This document shows, in pieces, positions 6,684-59,032 of a DNA stretch of 59,032 bases; the first letter of the stretch is position 1, and each line of letters opens with the position of its first letter. The position numbers and the translations under genes are program-made. This stretch comes from a virus (taxonomy: Duplodnaviria; Caudoviricetes): positions 1 through 59,032 of the IMG/VR virus record IMGVR_UViG_3300025767_000019; one strand, 5' to 3'. The notes under the pieces were generated by a model. The model was not told the origin of the DNA. It was given only the letters and a program-made list of their open reading frames with translations, and searched no databases.

Positions 6684-6697
6684 AGGGAAACAGTATA

Positions 6698-25868: not shown

Positions 25869-25875
25869 TGTTATT

Positions 25876-26389: not shown

Positions 26390-26397
26390 TATAAATA
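26390..26397 (+). promoter_or_regulatory. T4-type late promoter
   Basis: TATAAATA upstream of gp48. Confidence 0.8.
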
Positions 26398-26432
26398 ATG
26401 TTGTTAACACTCCACTATTTATTAGGACAAAT

Positions 26433-29700: not shown

Positions 29701-29701
29701 T

Positions 29702-30619: not shown

Positions 30620-30621
30620 TT

Positions 30622-32637: not shown

Positions 32638-32656
32638 TATAATACAAGGGACATAG

Positions 32657-34978: not shown

Positions 34979-34983
34979 ACCCA

Positions 34984-34991
34984 TATAAATA
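34984..34991 (+). promoter_or_regulatory. T4-type late promoter
   Basis: TATAAATA upstream of gp25. Confidence 0.8.
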
Positions 34992-35016
34992 ATACACAGT
35001 AACATAAGGATTTCCG

Positions 35017-35466: not shown

Positions 35467-35467
35467 T

Positions 35468-37298: not shown

Positions 37299-38336
37299 AT
37301 GTATACGAGTCCAGATAAGACCCTCGAGGATGATGGCAGAAGAGAGTTATCTTTTGTTGATTACCACCGCATCAAGGAAACTCTTCCTGAGTTTTTTATT
37401 GAGGCCTATCCAAAATTTATTGAATTCTTAGAAGCATACTATGAGTACGAGCATGGAGGCAGTGCGCCTTCGCGTTTGATACATGACATCTTAAAAGCTA
37501 AAGATATTTCAGCTGCTGATACCGAGTTGTTGACTTACATAGAAGATGAGTTGCTGTTAGGTGAACAGCACTTCGAAGGATTTAAAGATAAGAGAGCTGC
37601 AGCTAAAGTATCTAGCACAATGTATCAGTCAAAGGGCACTTTGTTCTCGATGCAGCAGTTCTTTAGAATGTTTTATGGATTAAATCCAGACATTACCTAT
37701 CCCAAAAAGTTTATATTCGAGGTAGGTTCAACTAAATCTGTTATTGGACCAGAGGGTGATAAGTTTATTTTAAATAATACTCTATATCAGAAATACTCAG
37801 TCTTAATCAAAATTGGTATACCACTTAGTGTCTGGAGAGATACCTTTAAGCTATTTGTACATCCAGCTGGGATGTATCTCGGATCCGAAATCCAAATGGT
37901 TGGAGATGGAAACCTCGATGTGTTTGCACCAGATGTCATCCCAGCAGTATTTGGAGGACTTGCAGTACACAGCGTTGCTTCTCTTGCGCCTCAAGCGTTG
38001 CCCGAAATATCCGGTTTGGCTCAAGCTCGTTCCGGTAAAGAATTCTTATCTCCAGAGGACGATTTGACTGATAGTGATTACACATCTAATATTGTAACAA
38101 GAGTGAGGGTATCAAAGAATTACAACTACGACACCCTCACTATTGATCAATTTGATTTGATCTATGATACAATTAATGAGGCTGGTGGTCTCAACTCTCC
38201 CACATTTGATGAGGATTCAGCAGTTGGCGATATCCGAGTTCCACGCTTCTCAGAAACAATTGACACAATGGACGAAGAAAAAATTGGCGTGTATGATCCA
38301 ACAGATACTTCAAATGAAGTGGGATTAGCGACATAA
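37299..38336 (+). CDS. baseplate wedge protein (gp7-like, short)
   Basis: LPEF....YP.F..FL.AYYE, Y.SKGT.....FFR..YG, YQ.YS..I, W....K..VHPAG. Confidence 0.75.
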   Translation: MYTSPDKTLEDDGRRELSFVDYHRIKETLPEFFIEAYPKFIEFLEAYYEYEHGGSAPSRLIHDILKAKDISAADTELLTYIEDELLLGEQHFEGFKDKRAAAKVSSTMYQSKGTLFSMQQFFRMFYGLNPDITYPKKFIFEVGSTKSVIGPEGDKFILNNTLYQKYSVLIKIGIPLSVWRDTFKLFVHPAGMYLGSEIQMVGDGNLDVFAPDVIPAVFGGLAVHSVASLAPQALPEISGLAQARSGKEFLSPEDDLTDSDYTSNIVTRVRVSKNYNYDTLTIDQFDLIYDTINEAGGLNSPTFDEDSAVGDIRVPRFSETIDTMDEEKIGVYDPTDTSNEVGLAT

Positions 38337-38339
38337 ATA
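38332..38339 (+). promoter_or_regulatory. late promoter variant
   Basis: CATAAATA, 1 mismatch to TATAAATA, 29 nt before ATG 38368. Confidence 0.55.
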
Positions 38340-38367
38340 CTAATGATAACTTATAACGGGCTATAAA

Positions 38368-39357
38368 ATGGCAAGACAAAATCTTAATCTAGGATCTTTA
38401 GCAAATGATGGTACAGGTGATACGCTACGTGCTGCTGGCCAAAAGATCAACCAAAACTTTGCTGAGTTGTATAAAACTCTCAGTGGTGATTCAGGTCAGG
38501 TAGCGACAGGGGTTAGCTTGACTAACACCGGTGTTGCTTTTGAGGGAACATCGATCAATGGTACTAAGACAACACTGACCGTAACCAATCCCACGGCTGC
38601 AAGAACTGTCACCATTCCTGATGTGACAGGAAACGTAGTGGTGGATGTGGCTACTCAAACCCTTACAAACAAAACGCTCACCTCTCCGTCTATTGCACTA
38701 CCCTCTATCAAGGACGACGATAGTTCTCATAGTTATAACATCATACCTGGTTCACTAACCAGCAATGTTAACCTTAACATTCCCTCTCTGAGTGATAGCG
38801 ACACATTTGTAACGCTGGGCAGTACACAGATTCTAACGAATAAAACGTTAACAGATGCTGTTCTTAGCGCACCAAGTATTCAAACATCTATTGAAGATGC
38901 TAATGGCAATGAGTTAATCAAGGTTGTCGCCACTAGCAGCGCTGTAAACGAATTTACAATTGCCAACAGCGCAACAGGGTCTAGTCCTGCCCTATCTGTT
39001 ACAGGAACAGATTTAGATGTAAATATGGCATTAACTGCCAAGGGTACCGGATCAGTACAGATTAGTAAAGTGTCTCTTACTCCTAGTGCGGCAATGACCT
39101 TGCCTGGTGCGGCATCGGCATCGGCATCGTATGTTATTGCTAACAGGGCAACGGCGCTGGCAATCTCACTAGCTGATGGCACTACTGCTGGTGAGGTGAA
39201 GGTGTTTACAAACAAAGGAGCAGGCGTTGCAACAATTACGCCAGCAAACTTTGCGCAAGGTACCACAGTTGCATTGGACCAATATGATGCAGCAACCTTG
39301 GTGTGGGATGGAATTAATTGGTATGTGTCCGGTCATTACGGCGCAACAGTAGCTTAA
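38368..39357 (+). CDS. baseplate wedge / tail fibre connector (gp9/gp10 N-terminal domain)
   Basis: N.G...NDGTGD.LR....KIN.NF.ELY; TQTLTNKTLT repeats. Confidence 0.8.
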   Translation: MARQNLNLGSLANDGTGDTLRAAGQKINQNFAELYKTLSGDSGQVATGVSLTNTGVAFEGTSINGTKTTLTVTNPTAARTVTIPDVTGNVVVDVATQTLTNKTLTSPSIALPSIKDDDSSHSYNIIPGSLTSNVNLNIPSLSDSDTFVTLGSTQILTNKTLTDAVLSAPSIQTSIEDANGNELIKVVATSSAVNEFTIANSATGSSPALSVTGTDLDVNMALTAKGTGSVQISKVSLTPSAAMTLPGAASASASYVIANRATALAISLADGTTAGEVKVFTNKGAGVATITPANFAQGTTVALDQYDAATLVWDGINWYVSGHYGATVA

Positions 39358-39369
39358 CAGGAAATAAAA

Positions 39370-40779: not shown

Positions 40780-40792
40780 AGAGTAGAAAAGA

Positions 40793-45940: not shown

Positions 45941-45941
45941 T

Positions 45942-46169
45942 ATGAGTGAGTTTATTCCTGTAACAGATAAACCCGGTCTCGTTAGAGACCCGAGATCGGG
46001 TGCCATTTTGAATATAAATAAGAGTGACGTAGAGAAAGCACGAGCGGCAAAACAGGCTCGTCTAAACAAAGAACAACAGCAAGCACAGCTTCGCCGTGAT
46101 GTAGATAATTTGAAAAGTGATATTAGTGATATAAAAAGCATGCTCGCACAATTAGTAGAGAAGATCTAA
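45942..46169 (+). CDS. small coiled-coil conserved protein
   Basis: L.RD..SGAI.N...LK.DI..IK.ML; typically follows VrlC-like genes. Confidence 0.75.
   Translation: MSEFIPVTDKPGLVRDPRSGAILNINKSDVEKARAAKQARLNKEQQQAQLRRDVDNLKSDISDIKSMLAQLVEKI
46013..46020 (+). promoter_or_regulatory. T4-type late promoter (intragenic) upstream of fibre gene
   Basis: TATAAATA. Confidence 0.55.
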
Positions 46170-49111
46170 TGGCTATTACAATTGTTACATCCAGCGATAC
46201 AATTAATGCGTGGAAAGAAAAGACGAACGACATCTCTGCTGATGTTGGAGATATTACTCAACTAACAACCGACTCTGATGCGGATGTTGTTCGTGCCATT
46301 AACAGTATTGATTCTAATCTAGGTGCGCGCGAAACTCTAACCACAATCGACAACTCTAACGTTGTTGCGGCTATCAATGAGCACGATGCTGAGCTTGGCG
46401 ACTCTGCTCTTACCACTACGGCTCAAACAATTCGTGGAGCAATCAACGAACATGATGCAGAGATTGGTGATTCTGCTTTAACCACAACTGGCCAGACTCT
46501 AAGATCCGCCATTAATGAACATGATGCTGAAATTGGCAACATGACGTTAACTGGATTAACAGCAACTGATTTATCAGCAGCTGCTAGAGAGTTGAGAACC
46601 GAGGTGGGTGATGTAACTGCTCTTACTACTGCAGAGAAAACAAATACGGTGGGTGCAATCGTTGAGGTTGTGGATAGAGTTGATTCTTTAGATGCACTAC
46701 TGGATCAGCCTGTCTTGCGTACTTCCGCAGTCGACTTTGCAAGAGTCACCACAGGCGACACAGTTCTCGATGGCAACGGCATCGCTCATACGAGCACATA
46801 CACCATTGATGCCGGCGTTAACATTATACTGGATGCAGCTAGCTCCGGTGGTGTTATCATGAGAAGAAGTGGTGTTACCAAGTTTACGTTCAAAGACTCT
46901 GGTTCGCAACATCAGGTAATTGATGTTCCCGGGACCATGCATCTTCACGCTGGAGATGATATAAGACTTGATGCTGGCGGCGGTGACTGGATTCTAGAAG
47001 ATCAGGACATTACTCAGTTTCAGTTTAGTGGTGTAGGCGTAGGCAACAAGCGGATGTCTATACCTACAGGCAACTTCGAAATTGATACGCAAGCAGCTAC
47101 TGGCCAAATAAATCTGCAAGCTGGTGCTAACGGTAAAGTTGTTCACAGTGCCGGTGGTACTGAGATGATGAATTTTACGACTGGGTCTATCAACAGAACC
47201 GGTTCATTAACAATTGATGCCTCTGCTAATATTACCTTGGATGCTGATGGAGGTAACGTCTATTTTAAGGATGGCGGCGCCACCCAGATGACGTTTACTG
47301 GCGGTACCAATAAAGAGATTGTGGTTGCAAGTGGCGATCTTACTGTCGATGTACCAGGCAATGTTACAATTGATGCAGATGGCGGCAATGTATATTTTAC
47401 TGGACTCAGTGGAAATAATCAGTTTTTGTTTGCTGGTGGTGTCAACAAAGAAATAGATATCCCCACTGGAGACCTAACTATTGACGTTGCTGGTGATGTT
47501 AGTATTGATGCCGACGGCGGTAATATTACGTTTAAAGATGATGGCACAACAACATTGGCATTTAGTGGCGGTACGGTTGCTAGGACTGGTACATTTACAA
47601 TTGATGCTTCAGCAGACATTGTGTTGGATGCAGGCGGTGCTGATGTATTACTAAAAGATGATGGCACTGCATATGGCTCTTTGACCAATTCAGGATCCAA
47701 CCTCACGATTAAGTCTGGTACTCAAACGGCTCTCACATTTAGCGGAGCTGTTAGTGGTGCGACTAAAAGGGCCGCTACATTTAATGGTCCTATATTTGCT
47801 ACAGACAGTGCACTGAGCGACAGTATGGGTGGCAGATCTCTTGTTGGTGCAATGAACTACTTGTTTACCAACTTGCAGTCGGCGTCGGAATATGCAGGTA
47901 CGCTGAGCCTAAACACTTCAGCAACCAATCTTACTGCTGCTGTTAACGAGTTGGATGCAGAGCATGGTGTTCTTGCCAATTTAACCACAACATCTAATAG
48001 TACATTTGTTGGAGCAATTAACGAGCTTGATGGTGATATTGGTAATAAAACCTCCTTGACAACAACTGCTAAAACAACTTTGGTTGCTGCTATCAACGAG
48101 CTTGATGGTGATATTGGTAATAAAACCTCCTTGACAACAACTAATAAAACAAATTTGGTTGCTGCTATCAACGAGCTGGATGCAATGACCACCGACAGGG
48201 TTGGTGAAGGGTCAACTAATTTATATTATACAGATGCTAGAGCTCGTGGTGCAATAAGCGTTACAAGCAGCACCGGTTTGTCATATAATAGTAGTACAGG
48301 TAAAATGGCTGGTGTTAATGCTACAAATTCGGTTAAGGGCGTTGCATCATTTGAGTCTGATAACTTTATTGTTAGTAGCGGTGCTGTTAGATTAAGAATA
48401 AGTGCCACAAATAGTGGTGCTGGATATGGTTCACTGGCATATGATAGCGATACAAGTGTATTTACCTTTTCAAAAGTTACTGATGCTAATATTCGCGGAA
48501 GAATAAGTGCCACAAATAGTGGTGCTGGATATGGTTCACTGGCATACAGCAGTTCTACAGGTGCAATAACATATAGTAAAGTTACGGATGCTAATATTAG
48601 AGGTGCATTCAGCGGCACCTCTCCAGTATCAATCAGTGCAGGTGGTGCAATCAGTGTGGGTGACGCATCTACTACTACTAAAGGCGTTGCATCTTTTGAT
48701 GATACCTCGTTCAGCGTTAGTAGTGGTAAAGTATCATTGAATTCAACAGGATTTATTGGTAATGCTCAAATTACATCGACTGCCGGAATTGATTTTTCCA
48801 AACTAGCCAATATTACAACTGCTAATAGGTTGTTGGGTTCAACAACACCTAATGGTGCTGTATCCGAAGTGCAAGTTGCAAGCGCCATGATTGCTAACAA
48901 TGCAGTCTCATACACTAAGATGCAAAAAGTGGTAACAGCAAATCGATTATTGGGATCCACATCAGCCAATAGTGCCGTATCTGAAGTGCAAGTACAGTCC
49001 GACATGATTGCTTCTGGTGCTGTTACTACAGCAAAACTTAGCAATAGTACTACCCTAAATATAAAAAATAGCAGCGGCACTACGTTGTTTAGTGTAACAG
49101 GCATTGGTTAA
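46169..49111 (+). CDS. tail fibre / whisker-like repetitive fibre protein
   Basis: SDT...W..KTN N-terminus; LTT...L..AINE coiled-coil repeats; I.LDADGG...KD.G repeats; EG.TNLYYT.AR; KGVASF. Confidence 0.82.
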   Translation: MAITIVTSSDTINAWKEKTNDISADVGDITQLTTDSDADVVRAINSIDSNLGARETLTTIDNSNVVAAINEHDAELGDSALTTTAQTIRGAINEHDAEIGDSALTTTGQTLRSAINEHDAEIGNMTLTGLTATDLSAAARELRTEVGDVTALTTAEKTNTVGAIVEVVDRVDSLDALLDQPVLRTSAVDFARVTTGDTVLDGNGIAHTSTYTIDAGVNIILDAASSGGVIMRRSGVTKFTFKDSGSQHQVIDVPGTMHLHAGDDIRLDAGGGDWILEDQDITQFQFSGVGVGNKRMSIPTGNFEIDTQAATGQINLQAGANGKVVHSAGGTEMMNFTTGSINRTGSLTIDASANITLDADGGNVYFKDGGATQMTFTGGTNKEIVVASGDLTVDVPGNVTIDADGGNVYFTGLSGNNQFLFAGGVNKEIDIPTGDLTIDVAGDVSIDADGGNITFKDDGTTTLAFSGGTVARTGTFTIDASADIVLDAGGADVLLKDDGTAYGSLTNSGSNLTIKSGTQTALTFSGAVSGATKRAATFNGPIFATDSALSDSMGGRSLVGAMNYLFTNLQSASEYAGTLSLNTSATNLTAAVNELDAEHGVLANLTTTSNSTFVGAINELDGDIGNKTSLTTTAKTTLVAAINELDGDIGNKTSLTTTNKTNLVAAINELDAMTTDRVGEGSTNLYYTDARARGAISVTSSTGLSYNSSTGKMAGVNATNSVKGVASFESDNFIVSSGAVRLRISATNSGAGYGSLAYDSDTSVFTFSKVTDANIRGRISATNSGAGYGSLAYSSSTGAITYSKVTDANIRGAFSGTSPVSISAGGAISVGDASTTTKGVASFDDTSFSVSSGKVSLNSTGFIGNAQITSTAGIDFSKLANITTANRLLGSTTPNGAVSEVQVASAMIANNAVSYTKMQKVVTANRLLGSTSANSAVSEVQVQSDMIASGAVTTAKLSNSTTLNIKNSSGTTLFSVTGIG
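48020..48176 (+). repeat. 75-bp near-identical in-frame tandem repeat
   Basis: Copies start at 48020 and 48095, 72/75 identical. Confidence 0.9.
48395..48604 (+). repeat. 105-bp in-frame tandem repeat
   Basis: Copies at 48395 and 48500; first 47 bp identical, remainder diverged. Confidence 0.88.
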
Positions 49112-49126
49112 TAATAAGGATTTTGA

Positions 49127-50983
49127 ATGACAATACGTTACCCACAAAAGTATACTACTCTATCGCGAGCTATTCGATCGGAAATAACAACATACACCTT
49201 TTCTGGTGTAAAAAGCGGAGTTACATTAACACAAATTAAGCTATTGCGGTTGACACCAGCACAAGCTGTTGATTCATGGAGCAATGGAGAAATAAATAAA
49301 AGTATTGGGGGTAGTAGCTATACTACTACAATGAATGCTAGAATGTCCACAGAGGCTAATGCTCGTGTGTGGTCTATTAATATGGACACCACCGTCAATG
49401 GTACTAGCAATGGATGGATATTCGTAAAAACATCTGATAACCAAGGGAACGAATTAGTAAACGGTTGGGAGTTGTGGTGGCCCAAAGAATCGGCCACCCA
49501 CAGCTACTATGACTTAAACGCCGCGTCGGCCGCCAATGCAGCGCTGGCGTTTGATAGATGGCCAGGTAACTTTACGGTAGTGGAGAATGATGATATTCTA
49601 TCTCCTCTTGTTGCTATACAAGACTTTCAAGAGACTGGCGAAGACAACAGAAAATATCAAGTGTATGCATTATATGATGCCTGGTTAAAGAGCCGTGGTA
49701 GCGACCCACTTGACGGTGAAAAAAATACAATTTCTGGAGTAGAGCTTGTTGTTCATCCGGTACGACACACCTTCTATACTGATAACCAAGGCGGTAACGC
49801 CGATCTCTTTATGGAACTAGGATACCGTTCCGACGAAACGAAGGAAGCCGCTGTGCTATCGGGTCCCGTAAATACTGATTTTACTCTTGGACTGGCATAC
49901 GCTTTAATTGGTCTCCAAACCAATTCATGGAGCCGAAGTATGAAAACTAGAGTGCTGGGCTCCCGCGAAATATATTATTTAAAATTGGGGTATCAGTGGG
50001 GAGTTATTAACGATCCAACGGACGCCCGCACAAACCAATTTATGTTGAAAGACAATAGGGTTATAGCTGGAGAACAACGGATAAGTGCCACAGATTATAT
50101 ATTTCCAGCCACATCTAGTGAGTATAATCTCACCACTCAATTCAATTTCAGAGCAACTCTTGATCAGTGGATTGACAGATCATATCGCGATAGATCGGTC
50201 ACGGGGAGTAGTCTGATGCCGGCCGATAATTTAATTCCGTTGTACTGGGACGGAACATCTCTTAAAAGGATGTCGTACGCTGACATTGTAGACACTTTTA
50301 TTGTTCCGACGTTGCAAACAATGAAGGGTGATGGTTTTGCAGATCAGACAGAAGATTTTAAACCATACACTGTTAGTACTTCAACATCAATTTCAAACTA
50401 TTATCCTGGTAAACCAATTTATTTTGATTCACGTATTGATAAAGACCAATATCAGTTTACTCTATCCCCAGACCAATACAAAGGAAACGACTTTGGTTAT
50501 TTACTAACGGTTGGGGCTGAAGAAACAAGAGATCAGCCAATCACAATAACTACCTATAGATTATTTACTAAAAACAACTGTAGAGCGGCAACAACCCAAT
50601 CTTCTAATTCTGTTGAATATATGGCGTTTGATGCCACGTCTAATAGTATTGTGGGTGTAACAAACAGTCAGCTAGCAACAGCACTTCTTCCTTTACTTAA
50701 TTTTCATATGTGTAGCGATGGTGCATATTCAATTAGATACAGTATGACAAATTCCGCAATTGCTAACTCCGAACCTGATACATCGTTGTATAATTCATCC
50801 ATCTCGTTGGGGTCTGTAATGCAAGACACATCATTTAATGAAGATACAGCAGGATTGGTTATTGGTTATTATGGAGGTACAGATGACTATAGAACCCAAG
50901 TCATGCCTGTAGCAGCAAACCAAACTGCTAGCAATACCACCAATACCATTCGCTTAAAAATGTATACCGTCTCAACCCCTTGA
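49127..50983 (+). CDS. hypothetical virion/fibre-associated protein
   Basis: 618-aa T/S-rich ORF with AAGGA SD, co-oriented downstream of the fibre gene. Confidence 0.65.
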   Translation: MTIRYPQKYTTLSRAIRSEITTYTFSGVKSGVTLTQIKLLRLTPAQAVDSWSNGEINKSIGGSSYTTTMNARMSTEANARVWSINMDTTVNGTSNGWIFVKTSDNQGNELVNGWELWWPKESATHSYYDLNAASAANAALAFDRWPGNFTVVENDDILSPLVAIQDFQETGEDNRKYQVYALYDAWLKSRGSDPLDGEKNTISGVELVVHPVRHTFYTDNQGGNADLFMELGYRSDETKEAAVLSGPVNTDFTLGLAYALIGLQTNSWSRSMKTRVLGSREIYYLKLGYQWGVINDPTDARTNQFMLKDNRVIAGEQRISATDYIFPATSSEYNLTTQFNFRATLDQWIDRSYRDRSVTGSSLMPADNLIPLYWDGTSLKRMSYADIVDTFIVPTLQTMKGDGFADQTEDFKPYTVSTSTSISNYYPGKPIYFDSRIDKDQYQFTLSPDQYKGNDFGYLLTVGAEETRDQPITITTYRLFTKNNCRAATTQSSNSVEYMAFDATSNSIVGVTNSQLATALLPLLNFHMCSDGAYSIRYSMTNSAIANSEPDTSLYNSSISLGSVMQDTSFNEDTAGLVIGYYGGTDDYRTQVMPVAANQTASNTTNTIRLKMYTVSTP

Positions 50984-51003
50984 TTGTAATTATTGGAATA
51001 AAA

Positions 51004-51498
51004 ATGTTAGATACAAAAGATAAAGTAGTCAGCGCAATTTTTGGTAATACGGAACAAACAATGATCCGTGCTACAATTCAAAAGAGCAAAACAAAAGAAA
51101 TTCATGAAGTCAATGTTACCAGTATTGACGGGGACCCCTTTTTGTGGAATCAAATTATTTCCCAAGTACCGCTAGAAAGTATTGCGGAACAAACAAGAGA
51201 TTTCCAAGCGGGGCAGCGAAGAGCGCTTGCCGATACCCTAATAAATTATGCTAAGAAAAATAACTTAGTGTATGATCCCAGTACGTGGAGTCCCAATACC
51301 AAGTTATCTATTGATAACATCTTCGTTTTGCCTGAGGGCGACGTGGGATCAGATTTCTTATTTGAATTGAAACTAAGAGTATTTGATATGCCAAAAATTG
51401 CTGCCTCAAGTGATCAGGCAGTTAAGGTAGCAATTCGCGAAGCAGAGTCACCCATCGAAGTATTCTATCACGCCGGCAAGATTCTATTTAACAAATAA
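51004..51498 (+). CDS. hypothetical protein (possible fibre assembly chaperone)
   Basis: ATG 51004; F.LKL..F....I..S.D...K..IR.A..P.E C-terminus. Confidence 0.6.
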   Translation: MLDTKDKVVSAIFGNTEQTMIRATIQKSKTKEIHEVNVTSIDGDPFLWNQIISQVPLESIAEQTRDFQAGQRRALADTLINYAKKNNLVYDPSTWSPNTKLSIDNIFVLPEGDVGSDFLFELKLRVFDMPKIAASSDQAVKVAIREAESPIEVFYHAGKILFNK

Positions 51499-52185
51499 AT
51501 TATAATCGGCCCACTTGTGGGGATGATTGGCCATGTGAGTAAAGTGAACAAACTTTATCGATGGCCAGAACTCTCCTCCCAAGTATGCATATGGGTTACC
51601 AGTCACTTGTTTGAATCTAGTGTTCAATTTGGATACACTGGTTGTAAACTCTGGACCCTGTCTAGCTTCCATACGACAGAACCATTCTTTGGGGAGTGTG
51701 ATCAATTCCAACTGTTCCTTAACAGTATCATTGATAAAATGCTGCTCGCCGTTCACAGGACCAGATGTGAATCCTTCTTTAATATAAATTGTTTGCCAGT
51801 GTTCTGGATCCGACATGAATTTATCAAAGATATATCTACAATCCTTGGGATAATATTTGTAGAACCCTCCGTTGATGGTGAATCGGGTTTCTAAGTCCTC
51901 AAACCCCCAACGCCACCAACCAGGTGCTGCTAAAAATTGGCCTCGTTCAATGGGATAGTCGAATATCTTTTTATAGTCCCCCAACAACAGCACGTCAATA
52001 TCCATTACGCATACTGGTTCGTCCTGATCCAAAGTCATACCGATCATTTTGTTCCACTGTAGCTTGACTCTGGGGTCAAATGCTTCACGAATCCAAACAA
52101 ATTCGTACTCTGGTAACTTAGACTCGAGATACGTCTCATACTCCGGACCGTATCGATCACCAATTCTAACTGCTATGATTTTCAT
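51484..52185 (-). CDS. GT-A glycosyltransferase
   Basis: VRIGDRYGPEY, WNK, VMDIDV, INGG, GEQ.FI, FVHF. Confidence 0.75.
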   Translation of the reverse strand: MKIIAVRIGDRYGPEYETYLESKLPEYEFVWIREAFDPRVKLQWNKMIGMTLDQDEPVCVMDIDVLLLGDYKKIFDYPIERGQFLAAPGWWRWGFEDLETRFTINGGFYKYYPKDCRYIFDKFMSDPEHWQTIYIKEGFTSGPVNGEQHFINDTVKEQLELITLPKEWFCRMEARQGPEFTTSVSKLNTRFKQVTGNPYAYLGGEFWPSIKFVHFTHMANHPHKWADYNLFVK

Positions 52186-53488
52186 ATAGTATATTCAATC
52201 TAAAGGGGGTCTGTCCAATTACCGTTGTGTTGGGTAAATCCAAAAGCTGGTTGAACTGCTCATTCATGTGTTCCAATGAGTACTTATGATATGAAAAGAT
52301 ATAAGAGAATATATTAGTCAAGTAGATCAAGTTAGACTTCGAAGGGTTAACTTCGAGTGTTTGAGTGAAGTAATCAAATTGCTTTATCTCAACATCCTTT
52401 ATCTGCTGCATAGCAGCAATCCAATCATGATCGGAAAAGATATCATCATTCTCTTCAATAAAACCAGATGGTTTATATGACGCGTCGTCAATTCGACTAT
52501 TGTATACTTTAGCTACAATCTTTGTAATTCGCTCAATATCATTAACGGTTTTGGCGCCGTACAAATTAAATAGCCCATCTTTCCACTTTAGAGACGGTTC
52601 GTGGTTGTCCACTATTACTAGTTTGCTATTCTCGTGACCAAACCGTTTCCACAAATACTCTGCAACATTACCAGCGGCGGGTGCGTAGATAACATCATAC
52701 TTTCTCGACAGCGGAATCTTATCAATCTGTGATAACTTCGATGTGTTACGTCTGTAAATAATATTGGGCGATTTTTGCTGATCGGCAACTAACGGGGCAC
52801 TCAACTCTTCACGTTGAGGATACGTAAAGTATTTGGAGCTACGTTCCGGTGATGTGAAGTTTGTTATTGTATCACCTCCTGCTACCACCTTGCTAATATA
52901 TTCAGCCATTTCAGCATTTTTAACTTCACGTGTTTCAGTACCTGGTTGTAGCCACGTCGGAGTATAGTCGTCGTGAATATTATCTTGTGACACTTTGGGT
53001 ATTGTCGCGATACCACTCCATTTGCCAAATGTGGGTCGATCAATATCGCGCCAGTGTCGAAGATTTAAAAACATTGATTGTAGGTGCATCCTACCATATT
53101 GCTTATCCGGGTGCCACAAAATATGACCACGGCACGGACTATCGTTACGCTCAATCCACTTGTCTAGGTAGTGGTAAATGCTGTATTCAGAAGAACTAGC
53201 AGGAAAACGATATACCGTTCCAACATAGGATACCAGAGCGTAATCATACTCGTCAGCAAGAGTTGCACCCTCGTCTAACGTCTTTGCAAAAATAACATTA
53301 TGTTCGTCATTACCACCTCTAGACCACCCAATGCCTGTCATCCAGGTCAAAGTCATTAAGTATTTTTTAAAGTCACCCCACTCGAGTTGTGGGTAGTCGA
53401 CAATGATGTGAACTTGATTACGCTTATTAATTTTATTATGGCCCGCGTGGTCCAAAATATACTTTGCGTACTCCTCAAATGACTGCAT
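52166..53488 (-). CDS. hypothetical protein (possible transferase with C-terminal Rossmann/MTase-like region)
   Basis: 440-aa ORF in the island; GHIL.H...H.Q...LNL..W; YAPAAG, VIVD, IYLTNIF.Y. Confidence 0.55.
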   Translation of the reverse strand: MQSFEEYAKYILDHAGHNKINKRNQVHIIVDYPQLEWGDFKKYLMTLTWMTGIGWSRGGNDEHNVIFAKTLDEGATLADEYDYALVSYVGTVYRFPASSSEYSIYHYLDKWIERNDSPCRGHILWHPDKQYGRMHLQSMFLNLRHWRDIDRPTFGKWSGIATIPKVSQDNIHDDYTPTWLQPGTETREVKNAEMAEYISKVVAGGDTITNFTSPERSSKYFTYPQREELSAPLVADQQKSPNIIYRRNTSKLSQIDKIPLSRKYDVIYAPAAGNVAEYLWKRFGHENSKLVIVDNHEPSLKWKDGLFNLYGAKTVNDIERITKIVAKVYNSRIDDASYKPSGFIEENDDIFSDHDWIAAMQQIKDVEIKQFDYFTQTLEVNPSKSNLIYLTNIFSYIFSYHKYSLEHMNEQFNQLLDLPNTTVIGQTPFRLNILYENHSS

Positions 53489-54137
53489 CTGGGTATTCTT
53501 TCTTAAATGATCTAATAAACAACTTCAACCGTTCTTCGTTGGATCCCCCATGAACAATAAAGTGGATCCTTGGTTGTTTCGAAAAGTTGGCTGCCTCGTG
53601 AAACGGCCCGTTGTTAAACCAGTACACCTCAAGAGGAGAAAACGGTACTTCTAGCTTATCTTCGACCCTTCGAAGGTAGCAGTTGTCTGGTTGTGTAATG
53701 CAAATGTTTATCGCTGACATAATATCATCTTTTAACGGCATACCTTCTTTCCATTGATGAGTATCGGTATGAGACCTAATGAACCCACCAGACTCTAATA
53801 ACATAAAACGAGCTCTGCCATACTTCCCATTATTAGGAAAGTCTTCTCTCAACCAACGAGTCATTTCAGGTGCGAGATCAGCCAGCTTAGTCCATTTATA
53901 AAAATCTTTAGCAGTGGGATTGTAATGTGTAATATTCCAATCCTCACCATGCAGAGTAGCAGAGGACCAACCCCTCCCGTGGGATTCTCGGTGGGCCGTA
54001 AACAGTCCTTGATTATAAATTGTTTTTGCTTCATCAACAACAGCCTCCGGGATTGTAATATCTGCTTTGAGGTAGAAGACTTTATTGTCTCTACACCACT
54101 GTTTAATTTTTTCTACTTCATCCAAACATTGCATCAT
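53475..54137 (-). CDS. aspartyl/asparaginyl beta-hydroxylase-like Fe(II)/2OG oxygenase
   Basis: GW.S..LHG, R.RFMLLE.GG.I..HTD (HxD), H.A.N.S..PRIH.I. Confidence 0.82.
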   Translation of the reverse strand: MMQCLDEVEKIKQWCRDNKVFYLKADITIPEAVVDEAKTIYNQGLFTAHRESHGRGWSSATLHGEDWNITHYNPTAKDFYKWTKLADLAPEMTRWLREDFPNNGKYGRARFMLLESGGFIRSHTDTHQWKEGMPLKDDIMSAINICITQPDNCYLRRVEDKLEVPFSPLEVYWFNNGPFHEAANFSKQPRIHFIVHGGSNEERLKLFIRSFKKEYPDAVI

Positions 54138-54669
54138 ATGTACTGTGAGTTATTTTATCAACTGTTAATAATGAGAGATCACCTCTATAGAATATACGCC
54201 GCCACGAATCTTTAGAAGTCTTTGGAGAGGCAACGCAGTAATAGTAATTAGGATCTTCTGTGTATCCAAAGCTAGTATACCAACGCGACACTAGTTTTGT
54301 ACGTCGATGCCAGTTTGCGGTTATTATAGATAACTTATAATCTGTGTGATTGTCAATCAAATCGCATATAGCGTATTTAAAACCTTCTCGTCTGTGCTCA
54401 GTGGGCGCGATGGACAAGTTATTTCGAAACACTTGAGATATGTATAGATCACTAACCCTACACACCCTAGGGTCGTACAACCCTCCATTTACAAATGTTG
54501 CGGACGCTCCTGGAACTCCGTTGTAATATACTAATAAGAAGTAATCGCGATTGTGCAAATCTTTGGGTTGTACGCCCTCTTGCTGAGCTTGTTCAACAAA
54601 GCTATTGTATTCGTCAAATGGCTCGGTGCTCAGTATATGTTTAAAGCAACTAAATGTTTCTATTATCAT
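54118..54669 (-). CDS. GNAT-like acetyltransferase fold protein
   Basis: RV..LYI...FR...; W.Y.SFGY pattern. Confidence 0.5.
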   Translation of the reverse strand: MIIETFSCFKHILSTEPFDEYNSFVEQAQQEGVQPKDLHNRDYFLLVYYNGVPGASATFVNGGLYDPRVCRVSDLYISQVFRNNLSIAPTEHRREGFKYAICDLIDNHTDYKLSIITANWHRRTKLVSRWYTSFGYTEDPNYYYCVASPKTSKDSWRRIFYRGDLSLLTVDKITHSTYDAMFG

Positions 54670-54698
54670 GTATATCCCTGCCTAACCGGCGGTATGGT

Positions 54699-54727
54699 AT
54701 TATACCATTAAAACTCAATTAAGTCCA
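54699..54727 (-). promoter_or_regulatory. sigma70-type promoter with extended -10
   Basis: Minus strand TGGACT-N17-TATAAT with TG at -15/-14; -10 lies inside the ATGGTA-TTA-TACCAT inverted repeat. Confidence 0.6.
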
Positions 54728-55384
54728 GTATTTTTTTACCCAAGGTTGTGCCAAACAAATGTCGGCACCCTCATTAAATAAACAGACTTCGTACGCCGGT
54801 CTGTGTAATCCGATCTGACTGTCGGTTTTGTAGTGCGTACCTTTGTTATACGAGTAAGCGATATTGATTGGTAAGGTTTCGAGTTCCAACTGCTCGTTGT
54901 ACAGGAACCTGTCCACACCTTTGTATTTGAATAGACTGTCGATTTTTTTTCGTTGGAAGAGTTCATACGCTGGTAATCCTTGGTTATCTTTCCACATCAT
55001 AATTGAAGAGTTGTACACTGTCGGATATCGATCATCCGAACAGGGCTGATACATTCCGTCTTTCCAAGCTGTATATAATACAGACAACTTGGAGGGGGTA
55101 TGATTCATTAACTTACTTAGCGGATTGATAATAACAATATCAAGATCAAAAAGTATATTAGTTCCGTGGCCATTAAATTTTCCCAATAGGTCTATCTTGA
55201 GCCACCACTTTTCGAGATCGGACTCAATGGGAATAACTTTAACCTCTTCACGAATCTCTGATGGATCCTCTGTATAGCAATAGAAGTCAAAATCGCGTGG
55301 TAGATTTCGCTTGACCATACTATAGAGTTTGTTAACATATTCAGCAGAGTACTTATCACCCCACTTCACACATAATATATTCAT
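54719..55384 (-). CDS. GT-A glycosyltransferase
   Basis: CVKWG.KY..EYVN.LY.MV.RN, WW.K..L, LFDLD.VI, YNSS.M.W. Confidence 0.82.
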   Translation of the reverse strand: MNILCVKWGDKYSAEYVNKLYSMVKRNLPRDFDFYCYTEDPSEIREEVKVIPIESDLEKWWLKIDLLGKFNGHGTNILFDLDIVIINPLSKLMNHTPSKLSVLYTAWKDGMYQPCSDDRYPTVYNSSIMMWKDNQGLPAYELFQRKKIDSLFKYKGVDRFLYNEQLELETLPINIAYSYNKGTHYKTDSQIGLHRPAYEVCLFNEGADICLAQPWVKKYWT

Positions 55385-55390
55385 TGTATT

Positions 55391-56098
55391 TTAATTGTAT
55401 CCCATCTTTTGTGACAGTTGATCCAAATCAGCAGAGGTCAAATCTTTGAAAGGAAAGTACAACAAGGAGTAGAATCTGTCTGGTGTAAGACCGTTACCCA
55501 GATCCGGAAATGATGCAATGTCGGCGCGAGGAGAACCATCCGCAGTGTTAATTTGTTCTTGGGTAACATTCCCAGAATTCAGTAACTTATTAACAACATG
55601 ATCTGGATTAGATCTCAAGTATTCAGCAATTGTTACCCCGTTTTCTGAAGCTGTGTGACGCAACTTCCACATGTAATACATGTCCTGGAGGTGTGGAGCA
55701 ACCACTACTACCTCATTAGCCAATTGCTCAAAGCTACGGCCAGTGTGTTTTGACAGAGCTTGAGCTTCTAAAAGATACAGGTTAAAGTTTGAAGAAGATT
55801 TGCGCGCTGGGGGAAGACTCGATTTATTAATAAATATCTTTTGACAGTGGTATTTTTCTAACTCATTGTATGCGTTATTAACTAAATCCTCATATCTAAC
55901 TGGCAGCTCATCATTGTTGGCAAATATTTCATTGAACCCCACAAGACAAAGAACTATAGTATTATTTACGCCGTAATAATCAATACAGATATCCAACAAC
56001 AATTTAGAAGACTCATCTTCTGTATATGAGACAACCACCTTTTGACCAGCACTCAGTTGTGGTAAATTATCAAATGTGTTCCACGTTTCTAAAGACAT
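55391..56098 (-). CDS. hypothetical protein (degenerate adenine-nucleotide alpha-hydrolase/QueC-like fold?)
   Basis: KVVVSY....SS.LL and C-terminal PF.DL...D; canonical SGGxDS absent. Confidence 0.45.
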   Translation of the reverse strand: MSLETWNTFDNLPQLSAGQKVVVSYTEDESSKLLLDICIDYYGVNNTIVLCLVGFNEIFANNDELPVRYEDLVNNAYNELEKYHCQKIFINKSSLPPARKSSSNFNLYLLEAQALSKHTGRSFEQLANEVVVVAPHLQDMYYMWKLRHTASENGVTIAEYLRSNPDHVVNKLLNSGNVTQEQINTADGSPRADIASFPDLGNGLTPDRFYSLLYFPFKDLTSADLDQLSQKMGYN

Positions 56099-56126
56099 TA
56101 TTAAACTCCGTATAAATGTACTCTAA

Positions 56127-56164
56127 TATTTATAATGGTTTTGTTTATAAAACCATTATAAATA
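56127..56164. promoter_or_regulatory. divergent pair of late promoters forming a perfect 16-bp inverted repeat
   Basis: TATTTATAATGGTTTT-gtttat-AAAACCATTATAAATA; TATAAATA on minus (56127-56134) and plus (56157-56164). Confidence 0.85.
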
Positions 56165-56197
56165 AAGGGAGTAGGCAACAACGTTCACAGGTTTAAC

Positions 56198-56551
56198 ATG
56201 GCACAATACGAAGAATTTACAATAGATCAAGGAACTGATGTATCCATTGAGATTCATCTCACCAACACTGATGGTTCAAAGAAAAACCTCAATGGTTATG
56301 ATATCGCAGCTGTCATGAAGAAAAACTATAATAGTGGTGATTCCGATTCCTTGGCATTTACAGGTATAGTAGCGGAGCCCGTGACAGCTGGTATTATCAA
56401 CCTGTCTTTGACTAATGTACAAACAGATAGTCTACGACCTGGCAAGTATGTTTATGATGTAGAAATTTCTTACGATGAAGATAGTGCTACAGTTATCCGA
56501 GAGAGAGTGTTGGAGGGTAAAATATTTGTAACCCCTTCTGTCACAAGGTAA
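56198..56551 (+). CDS. small virion structural protein (Ig/BppU-like)
   Basis: IDQG.D......L.GY...A..K.Y...G.I.LSL....T..L..G.YVYDVE...RVLEG...V.P.VT. Confidence 0.75.
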   Translation: MAQYEEFTIDQGTDVSIEIHLTNTDGSKKNLNGYDIAAVMKKNYNSGDSDSLAFTGIVAEPVTAGIINLSLTNVQTDSLRPGKYVYDVEISYDEDSATVIRERVLEGKIFVTPSVTR

Positions 56552-56555
56552 ATAA

Positions 56556-57413
56556 ATGTCTTCAGAAAAGTTTAACGTCAGTGTAAGTCAAAAGACTACT
56601 GTTAAGATATCGGAGGGTCAAACTCTTGTATCGAAGGTAGTTATTGGAACTCCGATTCGCTCTATTGAGCAAGCCCGGTTTGACGCTGCCACGTTAAACC
56701 GCTTCCCAGGTTCTCATTATCTAGATTGGAATAATTTTACTAATGTTCCAGATAAGGCTATTCTTGAACGAATAGATGAGATTGATGAGTCCGCTGCCGG
56801 CGATGGTTTTTTTGGCGCAGGATTGAAGCTCAATGGTACCATACGGGTTGCCGGCTCTATCATTCCCGACTCTAACGAGCGGTACAACCTGGGTACTCCT
56901 AACTATCGTTGGGGAGCTTTGTATGTAAAAGGACAAACGATTTATGTGGGTTCCCTTGCCATTAGTGATCAGGGAACCGGTCAATTAGCAATTTCAAATA
57001 TTGTGTTTGATCCAACCGGTGAGCCTGACGTTGATTCTGCCGGCAACATTTTAACCATTGGCGCGCAAATTGTAGGTTATTCTGATGAACCCGAAGCGGA
57101 CTTGCTAACAGCTGTTCCCAATCAAATTGTTGATGAATATGATGCGGAATTATATCGAACAAGTAAGTATGTTATTCAAGTAGAACATGATAGTGATAGT
57201 AAATATCAAACCAGCGAGTTGCTGTTGACTCATAACAATACTGACGTATTTTTAACAGAGTTTGCTGTTGTCCAAGCTCAAGATTCATCCATTGCTGAAT
57301 TCACCGCCACGATGGCAACCGGAGCTGCAGATAGTTCTATTGTTACCCTACTAATGAGTCCTGTATACACTAATACCAGTTTTAAATCAAAACGGTTTAG
57401 TATACAATCTTAA
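56556..57413 (+). CDS. virion structural / fibre-associated protein
   Basis: G.IIP.....Y.LG....RW..LY; C-terminal YR..KY.IQ.......Q..E.L..H......TE module. Confidence 0.7.
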   Translation: MSSEKFNVSVSQKTTVKISEGQTLVSKVVIGTPIRSIEQARFDAATLNRFPGSHYLDWNNFTNVPDKAILERIDEIDESAAGDGFFGAGLKLNGTIRVAGSIIPDSNERYNLGTPNYRWGALYVKGQTIYVGSLAISDQGTGQLAISNIVFDPTGEPDVDSAGNILTIGAQIVGYSDEPEADLLTAVPNQIVDEYDAELYRTSKYVIQVEHDSDSKYQTSELLLTHNNTDVFLTEFAVVQAQDSSIAEFTATMATGAADSSIVTLLMSPVYTNTSFKSKRFSIQS

Positions 57414-57429
57414 TAGCGTAATTAAAACA

Positions 57430-57437
57430 TATAAATA
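57430..57437 (+). promoter_or_regulatory. T4-type late promoter
   Basis: TATAAATA upstream of ATG 57482. Confidence 0.78.
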
Positions 57438-57481
57438 ATCAAGTAAATACATGCGTAGCCAAATGTGGAAAGTGAAGCTAG

Positions 57482-57787
57482 ATGGCTGTTAATAAAAATT
57501 TTATTGTAAAACGAGGGATTGAGATCAACGACAGTGCGATCGTGCACGGTGTTCTTTCAGCTTCGGGATTGCGATATCCTGTAACAGACGGTAGTAATAA
57601 TGATGTTGTAAAAACCAATGGTAATGGAATATTATCGTTGGGTAAACTTGCACTTAGAGATCTATCTGATATAGATGTGCAAAGTCTTGCGGATGAAGGG
57701 TTACTTGCGTATGATTCTGCGACCAGTAAATGGGTTGCGACAAACGAAATTTCAGTGGATGTTAATTCCGACGGAGGCTTTTATTAA
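57482..57787 (+). CDS. small fibre-associated virion protein
   Basis: F.VK.G, P..DG....V.KTNG.G.LS, L.DL.D.D......G.L.Y......W, DGG.Y end. Confidence 0.72.
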   Translation: MAVNKNFIVKRGIEINDSAIVHGVLSASGLRYPVTDGSNNDVVKTNGNGILSLGKLALRDLSDIDVQSLADEGLLAYDSATSKWVATNEISVDVNSDGGFY

Positions 57788-59032
57788 TGGCATCAATAAT
57801 TAAAATTAAACGGTCAGGTACCTCAGGGGCCCCCAGTTCGCTAAAACAAGGCGAATTAGCATATTCCTACTTAGCTGGAGACCAGTCCAACGGTGGTGAC
57901 AGGCTGTATGTGGGTACGGGTGCCGTTGACGGCAATGGCAATGCTACAAGTTTGGATGTCGTGGGTGGTAAGTACTTTACTGATCAGTTGGATCATGTAA
58001 AAGGCGCGCTGACGGCAAATAGTGCTATAGTAGTTGATGCTAACAGCAAGATCGACAACATAAGGATTGACAACATTGACATTGACGGTAATACTATTAG
58101 CTCTACTAATGCTAATGGTAATATTGTTATTGATCCCAATGGTATCGGTACAGTTGATGTTTCGGGTGCTCGGGTCACTAATGCTGGGACCCCTTCGGCA
58201 GGTACAGACCTAGCAACTAAAGATTACGTTGATAATAACGTAGGTGCTACACAGTTGACGATTATCGGTAATACCGGCACTGATACTATCAACACGCAAG
58301 ATTCGGATGTTACCTTTACTGGTACAGATGGTATTGTTACAGCGGTCACCGATAACACAGTTACATATTCTATATCAGACGGTGGTATTGCCAGTGCAAA
58401 GCTAGCCAACTCAGGTGTTACCCTTGGAACGTATGGCGGCGCTAGCGCAGTTCCTATTATAACTGTTAATGCCAAGGGTCAAATCACCGGCGTATCTACA
58501 GCTACAATCTCTGGCGAGATGAGCATTACCGGTGACACTGGTTCGGATACTGTCAGCCTTAGAGATTCTGGACTAGATTTTGCCGGCGGTACTGGTCTCA
58601 CAACAGCGGTTACTAATAATGTTGTAACCATCAACCTTGATAATACAGGGGTTACACCAGCCTCATATGGCGATGCTACAAACATTCCCACGTTTACTGT
58701 TGATCAGCAAGGTCGATTAACAGCTGCCGGCACAGTTGCTGTTGCAGGTACACTAACAACTGCTGGTACAAGTGGTACGGGGGACGTTAGCTTACTTGAC
58801 TCATCACTGACCGTTGATGGAGCTGATGGTATTAATACTACCGCTTCTGGCGCATCTATTACTGTGGGGTTGACGGATGGTGGCATTGCAAGTGCTAAGT
58901 TAGCCGACACAACTGTTGTTGCTGGAGCTTACGGATCTGAAGCTGCAATCCCAACGTTCACTGTTAACGCAAAAGGTCAGATAACTGCTGCTGGTACAGT
59001 AAGTGTTTCATCAACTTTAACTACTGCTGGCG
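57787..59032 (+). CDS. long tail fibre protein, N-terminal part (3' truncated by window)
   Basis: TAATG-coupled ATG; MASIIKIKRS....AP..L..GELAYS...GDRLY.G; DLATKDYVD; repeats of GVT.G.YG....IP..TV...G..T; open to window end, absent from ORF track. Confidence 0.85.
   Translation, partial: MASIIKIKRSGTSGAPSSLKQGELAYSYLAGDQSNGGDRLYVGTGAVDGNGNATSLDVVGGKYFTDQLDHVKGALTANSAIVVDANSKIDNIRIDNIDIDGNTISSTNANGNIVIDPNGIGTVDVSGARVTNAGTPSAGTDLATKDYVDNNVGATQLTIIGNTGTDTINTQDSDVTFTGTDGIVTAVTDNTVTYSISDGGIASAKLANSGVTLGTYGGASAVPIITVNAKGQITGVSTATISGEMSITGDTGSDTVSLRDSGLDFAGGTGLTTAVTNNVVTINLDNTGVTPASYGDATNIPTFTVDQQGRLTAAGTVAVAGTLTTAGTSGTGDVSLLDSSLTVDGADGINTTASGASITVGLTDGGIASAKLADTTVVAGAYGSEAAIPTFTVNAKGQITAAGTVSVSSTLTTAG

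Follow-up and report, generated by a model that had tools for sequence, protein, structure and literature searches.

An Asp-Ser-[Asp/Ala] motif concentrated in the outward-facing tail proteins of a marine T4-like myovirus clade, a candidate sequon for phage-directed serine modification

The stretch of viral DNA analysed here, IMG/VR record IMGVR_UViG_3300025767_000019 with a length of 59,032 nucleotides (nt) and hereafter called the window, is part of a T4-like myovirus and comprises about 40% of its genome. The element in question is a tripeptide motif, D-S-[D/A], found in the proteins of the outer baseplate and tail fibres. Throughout the marine T4-like myovirus clade to which this phage belongs the motif is over-represented approximately six-fold in the outward-facing tail apparatus and under-represented both in the inner baseplate and hub and in the non-virion proteins, a pattern for which a chance origin is excluded. 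The reading that we favour, and to which we would give nearly an even prospect, is that D-S-[D/A] serves as a sequon for a phage-directed modification of serine on the outward-facing tail, most likely O-glycosylation involving a four-gene module at positions 7290-9871. A preliminary description of the window had proposed that the phage places a D-S sequon in exposed loops for its own virion O-glycosylation system. The lineage-specific, exposed motif of that proposal has passed the computational tests and glycosylation itself is what we infer from it, whereas the analogy with the Bacteroidetes system, the general D-S form of the sequon and the enzymes outside the core module have failed.

The window displays a T4-like gene order, which on Pfam matches runs gp32, T4_baseplate, gp53, gp5 OB plus lysozyme, gp25, gp6, baseplate wedge, gp9/10 N, gp8 and DUF4815/VrlC-like. 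Its 79 open reading frames (ORFs) were called greedily, longest first, with at least 50 amino acids (aa) and an overlap of at most 60 nt, a procedure that takes in some spurious ORFs, and were divided at position 37299 into an early set of 61 (11,792 aa) and a late set of 18 (7,159 aa). In the late set DSD occurs 16 times against 3.13 expected (standard deviation 1.74), a number reached in none of 2000 within-protein shuffles and in none of 1000 shuffles for each block size of 10, 20 or 40 residues, which preserve the local composition. The count of about 16 given in the preliminary description was thus exact (37299, 1; 38368, 1; 39370, 4; 40793, 5; 46169, 2; 56198, 1; 56556, 1; 57787, 1; each ORF being denoted by its first position), as was its figure of about two for the first 37 kb: only the ORFs at 12758 and 14303 among the early 61 carry DSD, and every ORF from 21891 to 37297, including gp6, gp25, gp48, gp53 and the gp5 pieces, has none. 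In the late set no other of the 8000 tripeptides is as enriched as DSD (Poisson p 2.7e-7, which Bonferroni correction brings to about 0.002). In the early set even the DS dipeptide is depleted, with 26 occurrences against 45.2 expected and only 2 of 2000 shuffles yielding so low a number.

The true motif is D-S-[D/A] rather than D-S at large. In this combined form it is found 27 times in nine plus-strand late ORFs against 6.4-6.9 expected, with 0 of 1000 local-block shuffles reaching the observed value, whereas the DS dipeptide as such is raised weakly (55 against 43.8, a level attained by 84 of 2000 shuffles). Among the additional forms that had been described as numerous, DSA is indeed in excess (11 against 3.7), but DSS (6 against 3.9), DSG (3 against 3.6) and DSN (2 against 2.7) are at ordinary levels; DSL stands at 7 against 3.2, and the reversed and neighbouring tripeptides are either ordinary or depleted. 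Likewise, DST (0 against 4.5), DTD (1 against 3.6) and DSE (0 against 1.7) are rare, and since the versions containing threonine are depleted, the motif evidently requires serine. At the 16 DSD sites the serine codons are mixed (6 AGY and 10 TCN), which places the signal at the level of the protein and rules out a motif in the DNA. An origin in local composition, that is, in loops rich in aspartate and serine, is in turn ruled out by the block shuffles together with control tripeptides of similar composition.

Taken by themselves the statistics of the window are suggestive only. The division at 37299 was chosen after the data had been seen, and over the whole window the excess of DSD (18 against 6.06, p 6.4e-5) fails correction for 8000 tripeptides. 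Since the window alone is vulnerable on both counts, it is the relatives that settle the reality of the pattern. When 5.8 billion proteins were searched for homologues of the gp8-like protein, identities ranged from 97% down to 43%, and the 121 sequences that were aligned contain 270 DSD where 29.4 would be expected; about six of the positions recur, and many others are rare. When this alignment was used to scan IMG/VR, 80 loci were recovered whose gp8 is 33-47% identical and which extend at most 10 kb to each side; a scan with one protein instead of the alignment yielded only distant relatives, which are unenriched. Over the 80 loci, counted without regard to kinship as are all the relatives below, DSD amounts to 645 against 136.5 and lies above expectation in 77, the other three consisting nearly entirely of upstream, inner baseplate genes or being the most distant.

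The enrichment extends over each family of outer proteins. In the relatives DSD and DSA reach 106 against 13.6 and 78 against 8.9 in the gp7-like family, and 53 against 8.3 and 89 against 11.5 in the gp9/10-like family, and DSD reaches 130 against 20.0 in gp8, 239 against 39.7 in the VrlC-like proteins and 57 against 7.4 in the fibre family, in all of which DSA is raised to a like extent and DTD is depleted. Summed over 328 outer-family proteins, DSD (585 against 89.0) and DSA (561 against 95.0) are the two most enriched tripeptides among those with an expectation of at least 15, DTD is found 52 times against 99, and DS[DA] outnumbers each of the control patterns DT[DA], [EN]S[DA], D[GN][DA] and SD[SA] by a factor of 4 to 30. 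The picture is inverted in 219 inner proteins of eight families (gp48-, gp53-, gp5-, gp25- and gp6-like among them), in which DSD falls to 3 against 30.1 and is among the most depleted tripeptides, DSA to 10 against 32.9 and the DS dipeptide to 240 against 458.7. The transition lies in the relatives exactly where it does in the window, between gp6 and the gp7-like protein.

The same comparison can be made over a genome in G001 (144 kb) and G002 (142 kb), both of them near-complete relatives. In G001 the module of neck, baseplate and fibre genes contains 90 DS[DA] against 10.5 expected and the rest of the genome 12 against 19.2; in G002 the corresponding values are 79 against 14.5 and 12 against 18.2. 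The motif-poor remainder includes the portal, sheath, tube, scaffold, terminase and replication genes. In G001 three DS[DA] against 0.17 expected are carried by the gp15-like sheath stabiliser, and no fewer than 29 against 2.84 by the homologue of the terminal fibre ORF at 57787-59031. Non-virion proteins encoded around homologues of the ORF at 9269 (333,164 aa) are in deficit, with 91 DS[DA] against 142.9 and none carrying four or more.

The trait is confined to a limited part of the T4-like phages. No near-identical DNA is found in the phage collection, where the nearest record is that of Phage C48C1 with 33% identity in gp8, followed by the cyanomyoviruses and Pelagibacter phage Mosig at about 29%. 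The order of the outer baseplate carriers is the same in C48C1, Mosig, HTVC008M and S-SM2, yet relatives with the same baseplate genes and a gp8 identity below about 33% are unenriched: DS[DA] is at 18 against 24.9 throughout the Mosig genome, its enrichment is absent from the modules of HTVC008M and S-SM2, and five distant IMG/VR relatives (L001-L005) have DSD at 2 against 8.8. C48C1 is intermediate, with DS[DA] at 15 against 3.2 in its gp7-like protein and 5 against 0.8 in one fibre, its gp8 and VrlC-like proteins being without the motif. The C48C1 gp7-like protein (L011, 15242-19948) is built of tandem repeats of about 88 residues with DSD and DSA at fixed positions ('..lvtDSDitsatnsvkdellaqliDSAdataivnskitefs..').

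The sites themselves, as far as alignments show, turn over between columns in the course of evolution. DS[DA] occupies 38 columns in the gp7-like, 29 in the gp9/10-like and 47 in the gp8 alignments, no column reaching 50% occupancy, against 4, 6 and 11 columns respectively for DT[DA]; in gp6 and the family of the ORF at 32657 the relation is reversed (4 and 1 columns against 14 and 6). A Fisher test on these columns, by which events are counted conservatively, gives an odds ratio of 21.7 and p 4.5e-10, values which are not exact, the column counts being inflated by alignment error and the sequences being related. In fibres the motif opens several different types of repeat. One of these, SKITSGTFDSARIP in G002, has as its homologues SKVTSGTFDAARIP in Streptomyces phage Kradal and 'GTLDAS/GTLDAD' in Lactobacillus phage Ldl1, and when the C-terminal fibre domain of G002 is aligned with that of roseophage CRP-810, two DSD sites face NGT and SSG; DAA, NGT or SSG thus stand in place of the motif in homologous fibre segments outside the clade, and the fibres of CRP-810 and of pelagiphage HTVC109P contain no DS[DA] at all. 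Since homologous repeats and domains elsewhere use other residues, the serine-containing motif was introduced into folds that can do without it. Together with the gp8 alignment and model, these homologues bear out the expectation that the sites are lineage-specific substitutions in loops and repeats. In the window's own fibre (46169-49111) a unit of about 23 residues is duplicated at residues about 66-115 ('..NEHDAE[LI]GDSALTTT.QT[IL]R.AINEHD..'), with a DSA (78 and 101) at the same place in each copy.

Enzymes that might read such a motif are encoded near the left end of the window. By Pfam, the island at 3154-9871 comprises two GT8, two GT25 and two methyltransferase genes and a pyruvyl transferase, leaving three ORFs (4529, 8625 and 9269) unmatched; to these an Asp_Arg_Hydrox gene (Pfam) and a further glycosyltransferase at 54719-55384 (PHROG) are added by a minus-strand cluster within the fibre module. 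With 4529, 8625 and 9269 taken as glycosyltransferase-like, the list of about eight glycosyltransferases, two methyltransferases, a pyruvyltransferase and a hydroxylase-like enzyme in the preliminary description was roughly right. A relaxed Pfam search of 4529, 8625 and the six minus-strand genes returned only Asp_Arg_Hydrox and sub-threshold GT8. Counting of the island families in 80 loci around homologues of 9269, with 10-kb flanks, distinguishes a conserved core, which is 7290-9871 plus a GT8, from a variable part at 3154..7288.

Within this core the 200-aa protein of 9269 is the best conserved, with 58-91% identity to 47 chosen homologues. Its family is present in G001, G002, G003, C48C1 and an IMG/VR contig common to L043 and L149 and is absent from Mosig; of 50,697 phage records, that of C48C1 alone contains it, and no cyanophage record does. 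A structural model (pLDDT 91.8) has as its top VIA-align match the Maf structure 5mu5_A of Magnetospirillum (Z 11.0, rmsd 3.6 over 165 of 200 residues), followed by the Campylobacter sialyltransferase Cst-I (2p56, Z 10.1), by SteA and an MptE-type pyrophosphokinase (Z 9.0-9.4 for SteA and pyrophosphokinases) and by mammalian sialyltransferases, unrelated entries scoring about Z 5; Foldseek places CstII first (E 5.6e-4), with a TM of only 0.36. Weak matches to PF01973 are obtained for 26 of the 48 members of the family (E up to 1, best 1.1e-4) and to PF00777 for 6 of the 48, the same two families to which the leads from the protein atlas point, and the family profile has no match in NCBIfam and none to Maf or CstII among PDB sequences. 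Among the homologues collected, without a search for longer forms, the family has a length of 191-209 aa, and it corresponds to residues 271-508 in the Maf chain of 632 residues. On this modelling 9269 has a Maf/sialyltransferase-like catalytic fold.

The motif and the 9269 family occur together. Enrichment is found in all six records that yielded homologues of gp8 and 9269 alike and is absent from three relatives without the family, Mosig, HTVC008M and S-SM2, in agreement with the co-occurrence of motif and glycosyltransferases that the preliminary description had predicted. GT25 was considered as a marker of the trait and ruled out, PF01755 being unmatched in C48C1, where BLAST finds a weak GT25-like gene. 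Neither the hydroxylase-like gene nor the pyruvyl transferase nor most of the island, all initially counted as part of the system, is conserved with the trait. The enzymes that would decorate a glycan vary between phages, the 9269/8625/GT25 core being kept: G001 has, at 60,442-77,497 (L104) and beside GT25 and GT8, a sugar island with a sulfotransferase, a fusion of HAD phosphatase and sugar-nucleotidyl transferase, a cupin, a GATase, a radical SAM/SPASM protein and a carbamoyltransferase, the sulfotransferase adjoining its 9269 homologue. Both GT25 proteins of the window (7290-8638) also match PHROG 61, whose profile of 689 positions bears the name '2OG-Fe(II) oxygenase'; this suggests that in other phages the GT25 domain is joined to an oxygenase, in the manner of hydroxylase-glycosyltransferase pairs.

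The favoured reading could accommodate these observations as follows. Late in infection a cytoplasmic enzyme encoded by the phage would recognise D-S-[D/A] on tail proteins during or after their folding and modify the serine, the likeliest chemistry being an O-glycosylation begun or extended by the four-gene module at 7290-9871. The variable genes of the island (GT8, methyl- and pyruvyltransferases, in relatives also sulfo- and carbamoyltransferases) may then decorate the glycan, and the inner baseplate proteins may avoid the motif because unwanted modification would harm assembly. As a matter of speculation, a glycan coat on fibres and outer baseplate might protect them, against proteases or sticking, or contribute to host recognition, or both. 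A more specific version strikes us as doubtful in its full form: that a D-S-[D/A] O-glycosylation sequon, common to a clade of abundant marine T4-like phages, present dozens of times in fibres, outer baseplate and neck and counter-selected elsewhere, has as its cytoplasmic reader a minimal Maf/sialyltransferase-like enzyme of 200 aa, possibly acting on host CMP-Kdo or a nonulosonic acid, with GT25 and GT8 extending the glycan and methyl-, pyruvyl-, sulfo- and carbamoyltransferases decorating it into a diversifiable coat on the host-recognition apparatus.

A number of observations weigh against the favoured reading. The proposed modification is a prediction from sequences and modelled structures, and the counts in the relatives are not phylogenetically independent. 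The trait and the glycosyltransferase module are found in a single clade, C48C1 providing a second, partial case, which brings their co-occurrence close to a single evolutionary event, and 20 genes of G001, most of them unrelated to sugars, have the same distribution (in G002 and C48C1, not in Mosig). Two fragmentary relatives, G004 (102 kb, 61% complete) and G005, have an enriched baseplate and no match to 9269 or GT25. As to the enzyme, the fold of 9269 recurs in pyrophosphokinases and SteA with comparable scores, the protein of the window has no PF01973 match, and those of its family are below threshold; Maf itself is about 600 aa long and has no known sequon (PMC11339370). Comparable islands of GT8, GT25, GT2 and epimerase genes in cyanomyoviruses have usually been read as serving the modification of the host surface or of DNA (PMC12801897). 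No late-promoter-like site (TATAAATA) directly precedes the island genes at 2574-9871, a point that bears on late expression of the core module. With regard to the motif, DSD alone is not depleted in the non-virion proteins of G001 and G002 (19 against 20.3), some sites are conserved in the way of structural residues (at gp8 site 337, 72 of 121 homologues have DSD), and glycine is enriched 2.2 times immediately after the motif, as in turns. Finally, the ORFs at 49127 and 50980 (618 and 172 aa; 49127-51498, plus strand) lie inside the fibre module without motif or family match; their homologues are poor in DS (DSD 0 against 1.2, DS 8 against 19.4), and they may be non-virion or buried components.

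Several of these points would also suit a purely structural motif, a turn, loop cap or element of repeat boundaries inherited in the clade and left unmodified, an explanation that we judge unlikely. In the AlphaFold model of the gp8-like protein (pLDDT 91.6) the aspartate and serine of all five DS sites are in neither helix nor strand, as are 53% of residues, and all five lie in 10-residue blocks with a confidence at or below the mean. This environment, the glycine after the motif, the hydrophobic residues preceding it in relatives (0.55-0.68 against a background of 0.38, absent at the window's own 27 sites), the recurrence at fixed places of fibre repeat units and the persistence of gp8 site 337 would all be natural for a structural element. 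Such an element, however, would usually admit threonine in place of serine in turns and caps, and threonine is depleted; the same folds and repeats in other phages make do with other residues, relatives with the same baseplate proteins are unenriched, and the inner baseplate proteins of the very same phages avoid the motif (DS[DA] 13 against 63). Nor are the sites fixed, turning over as they do between columns. A helix N-cap, an idea derived from the helical-looking repeats of C48C1, is unsupported in gp8, where the sites lie in coil far from helix starts. Enrichment, avoidance, turnover and serine specificity would, on the other hand, fit any modification directed by the motif, and in principle the sequon might serve serine phosphorylation or sulfation, β-hydroxylation of aspartate by the Asp_Arg_Hydrox-like enzyme, or a cross-link, introduced by another enzyme of phage or host. 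The hydroxylase-like gene is located within the fibre module, downstream of a late-promoter-like site, G001 has its sulfotransferase next to the 9269 homologue, and the window covers only about 40% of the genome. We nevertheless consider such a modification quite unlikely. The hydroxylase-like gene, ruled out as a marker of the trait, has no homologue in G001 or G002, and unenriched Mosig is annotated with two; no kinase is found by Pfam among the ORFs of the window; and the sole enzyme set found conserved with the trait is glycosyltransferase-like.

Modification by the host, through a general O-glycosylation system of the Bacteroidota type, appears highly improbable. Tailed-phage virions assemble in the cytoplasm, and the Bacteroidota glycan is built on undecaprenyl phosphate. 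As described in PMC12871550, the Bacteroidota system acts only on non-cytoplasmic proteins, the glycan being first flipped to the periplasm, and an excess of sequons in the target compartment is its genomic signature, which provides a precedent for taking such an excess as the mark of a glycosylation system. The motif D-(S/T)-(A/I/L/V/M/T) reported for it (PMC8550257) has in common with that of the phage its three residues, its beginning with Asp-Ser and its excess over chance, and D-S-A would fit it. But the Bacteroidota sequon as a whole, D-[ST]-[AILVMT], is not enriched in the late ORFs (37 against 39.5), its threonine forms are depleted (DTA 1 against 4.4, DTT 2 against 5.7), and D-S-D falls outside it; unlike the Bacteroidota motif, that of the phage excludes threonine, has aspartate as its commonest third residue and is carried by virion proteins rather than by exported ones. 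No flippase or oligosaccharyltransferase family of Pfam is found among the 79 ORFs of the window, itself part of a genome. The Bacteroidetes analogy drawn in the preliminary description does not fit. As for chance, helped by the post hoc choice of motif and boundary and by the failure of the whole-window excess to withstand correction, its probability is practically nil, 77 of 80 loci and both near-complete genomes having the same pattern and boundary.

Other systems comparable with the favoured reading of D-S-[D/A] as a phage-directed sequon include cytoplasmic glycosyltransferases. Maf enzymes modify in the cytoplasm serines and threonines of flagellin that are surface-exposed and near hydrophobic residues (PMC11339370, PMC4065374), and some accept CMP-Kdo or CMP-Neu5Ac (PMC11339370). 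Maf is the best structural match of 9269, and modification of a filament protein at serine or threonine in the cytoplasm is its own activity; 9269 differs in having 200 aa that correspond to the central domain only of a multi-domain enzyme, its putative targets would be tail proteins instead of flagellin, and Maf accepts threonine, which the phage motif does not. The enzymes SdgA and SdgB belong to family GT4. In staphylococci they glycosylate, again in the cytoplasm, serines flanked by aspartate, a modification for which protection of adhesive surface proteins has been proposed (PMC3794999, PMC8561734), and by analogy they are the nearest chemical precedent for a serine between aspartates. 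Their substrates are long SD repeats, unlike the isolated motifs of the phage, which form no SD runs (SDS 7 against 3.9), and by Pfam no enzyme of SdgA/SdgB type is present among the 79 ORFs. With respect to phages themselves, virion proteins of mycobacteriophages are reportedly glycosylated by phage-encoded glycosyltransferases (Freeman et al. 2023). The proteins modified there are reportedly those of the capsid and tail tube, on C-terminal tails rich in serine and threonine, and a short sequon is not known to be involved. The window likewise encodes glycosyltransferases (two GT8, two GT25, the PHROG glycosyltransferase and the 9269 fold), but here the carriers are outer baseplate, fibre and neck proteins and a sequon is implied. 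The glycosyltransferase islands of cyanomyoviruses are similar T4-like marine clusters (PMC12801897) for which no target motif is known to have been described, and cyanophage S-SM2, unlike the present clade, lacks the enrichment.

If the favoured reading is correct, a phage tail would for the first time be seen to carry a code for protein modification that is defined by sequence, and virion glycosylation would for the first time be recorded in T4-like or marine phages; a word search of the literature in a limited library returned nothing on such a motif or on O-glycosylation of tail fibres in these phages. The glycosyltransferase islands found in marine myoviruses, so far only guessed to be modifiers of host surface or DNA (PMC12801897), would also gain a definite role, and a minimal cytoplasmic O-glycosyltransferase directed by a sequon would be useful for glyco-engineering, Maf having no defined sequon (PMC11339370). 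Even unmodified, the motif would bear witness to a striking compartment-specific selection on the proteome, enriched six-fold in one compartment and depleted five-fold in its neighbour.

Table 1. Carrier proteins, candidate modifying enzymes and other features of the window (presence among 80 loci refers to those around 9269 homologues)
Feature	Position	Strand	Basis and remarks
gp7-like baseplate wedge, 345 aa	37299..38336	+	Pfam PF23786 Baseplate_wedge; DSD at 258, DSA at 306
gp9/gp10-like baseplate protein, 329 aa	38368..39357	+	Pfam PF07880 T4_gp9_10_N, PHROG 677; DSD at 143
gp8-like baseplate wedge, 469 aa	39370..40779	+	Pfam PF09215; DSD at 41, 243, 337, 428; DSA at 173; site 428 is DSD in 33 of 121 homologues
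VrlC-like giant baseplate protein, 1715 aa	40793..45940	+	Pfam DUF4815 (PF16075), PHROG 358; DSD at 20, 606, 826, 1386, 1573; DSA at 1440, 1639
Tail fibre, 980 aa	46169..49111	+	PHROG tail fibre families; DSD at 35, 759; DSA at 78, 101, 546
Fibre-assembly-like	56198-56551	+	PHROG; 2 DS[DA], of which 1 DSD
Distal fibre gene	56556-57413	+	PHROG; 2 DS[DA], of which 1 DSD
Distal fibre gene	57482-57787	+	PHROG; 2 DS[DA]
Distal fibre gene, open at 3' end	57787-59031	+	PHROG; 1 DS[DA] (DSD)
GT8	3154	+	Pfam; family in 58/80 loci
Methyltransferase	3936	+	Pfam; 5/80 loci
GT8-like / GT-like	4529	+	No Pfam match above threshold
GT8-like	5197	+	Pfam; 23/80 loci
Pyruvyl transferase	5973	+	Pfam; 0/80 loci
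Methyltransferase	6698	+	Pfam; 25/80 loci
GT25	7290-8000	+	Pfam PF01755; 64/80 loci
GT25	7997-8638	+	Pfam PF01755; 64/80 loci
GT-A-like	8625-9272	+	Protein atlas lead to PF03407/GT8, nucleotide-sugar transferases; 78/80 loci
Maf/sialyltransferase-like, 200 aa	9269-9871	+	Predicted fold; family in 79/80 loci
Six-gene cluster inside fibre module	51484..56098	-	Pfam, PHROG
Asp_Arg_Hydrox-like gene	53475-54137	-	Pfam
Glycosyltransferase	54719-55384	-	PHROG
TATAAATA sites	337, 25861(-), 26390, 34984, 46013, 56127(-), 56157, 57430
OB fold + tail lysozyme	29702-30619		Pfam
671-aa protein with Amidase_2 domain	30622-32637		Pfam
773-aa protein without Pfam match	32657-34978

The late-promoter-like sequence TATAAATA occurs eight times in the window against 3.3 expected, a number reached by 2 of 100 shuffles. 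In a 60-nt screen six of the eight sites precede by 6-45 nt the start of a gene on their own strand, as the late promoters of T4 do, those at 26390 and 46013 falling within ORFs as called. The genes preceded by such sites are structural ones and those of the minus-strand cluster at 51484-56098, whose first gene has its site (56127-56134, minus strand) 29 nt upstream. Its conservation does not follow the trait: of the genes in this cluster, 51484 and 54719 alone have homologues in G002, and none has one in G001.

In the central part of the window, the functions of gp5 seem to be split over three consecutive ORFs, as judged from Pfam matches.

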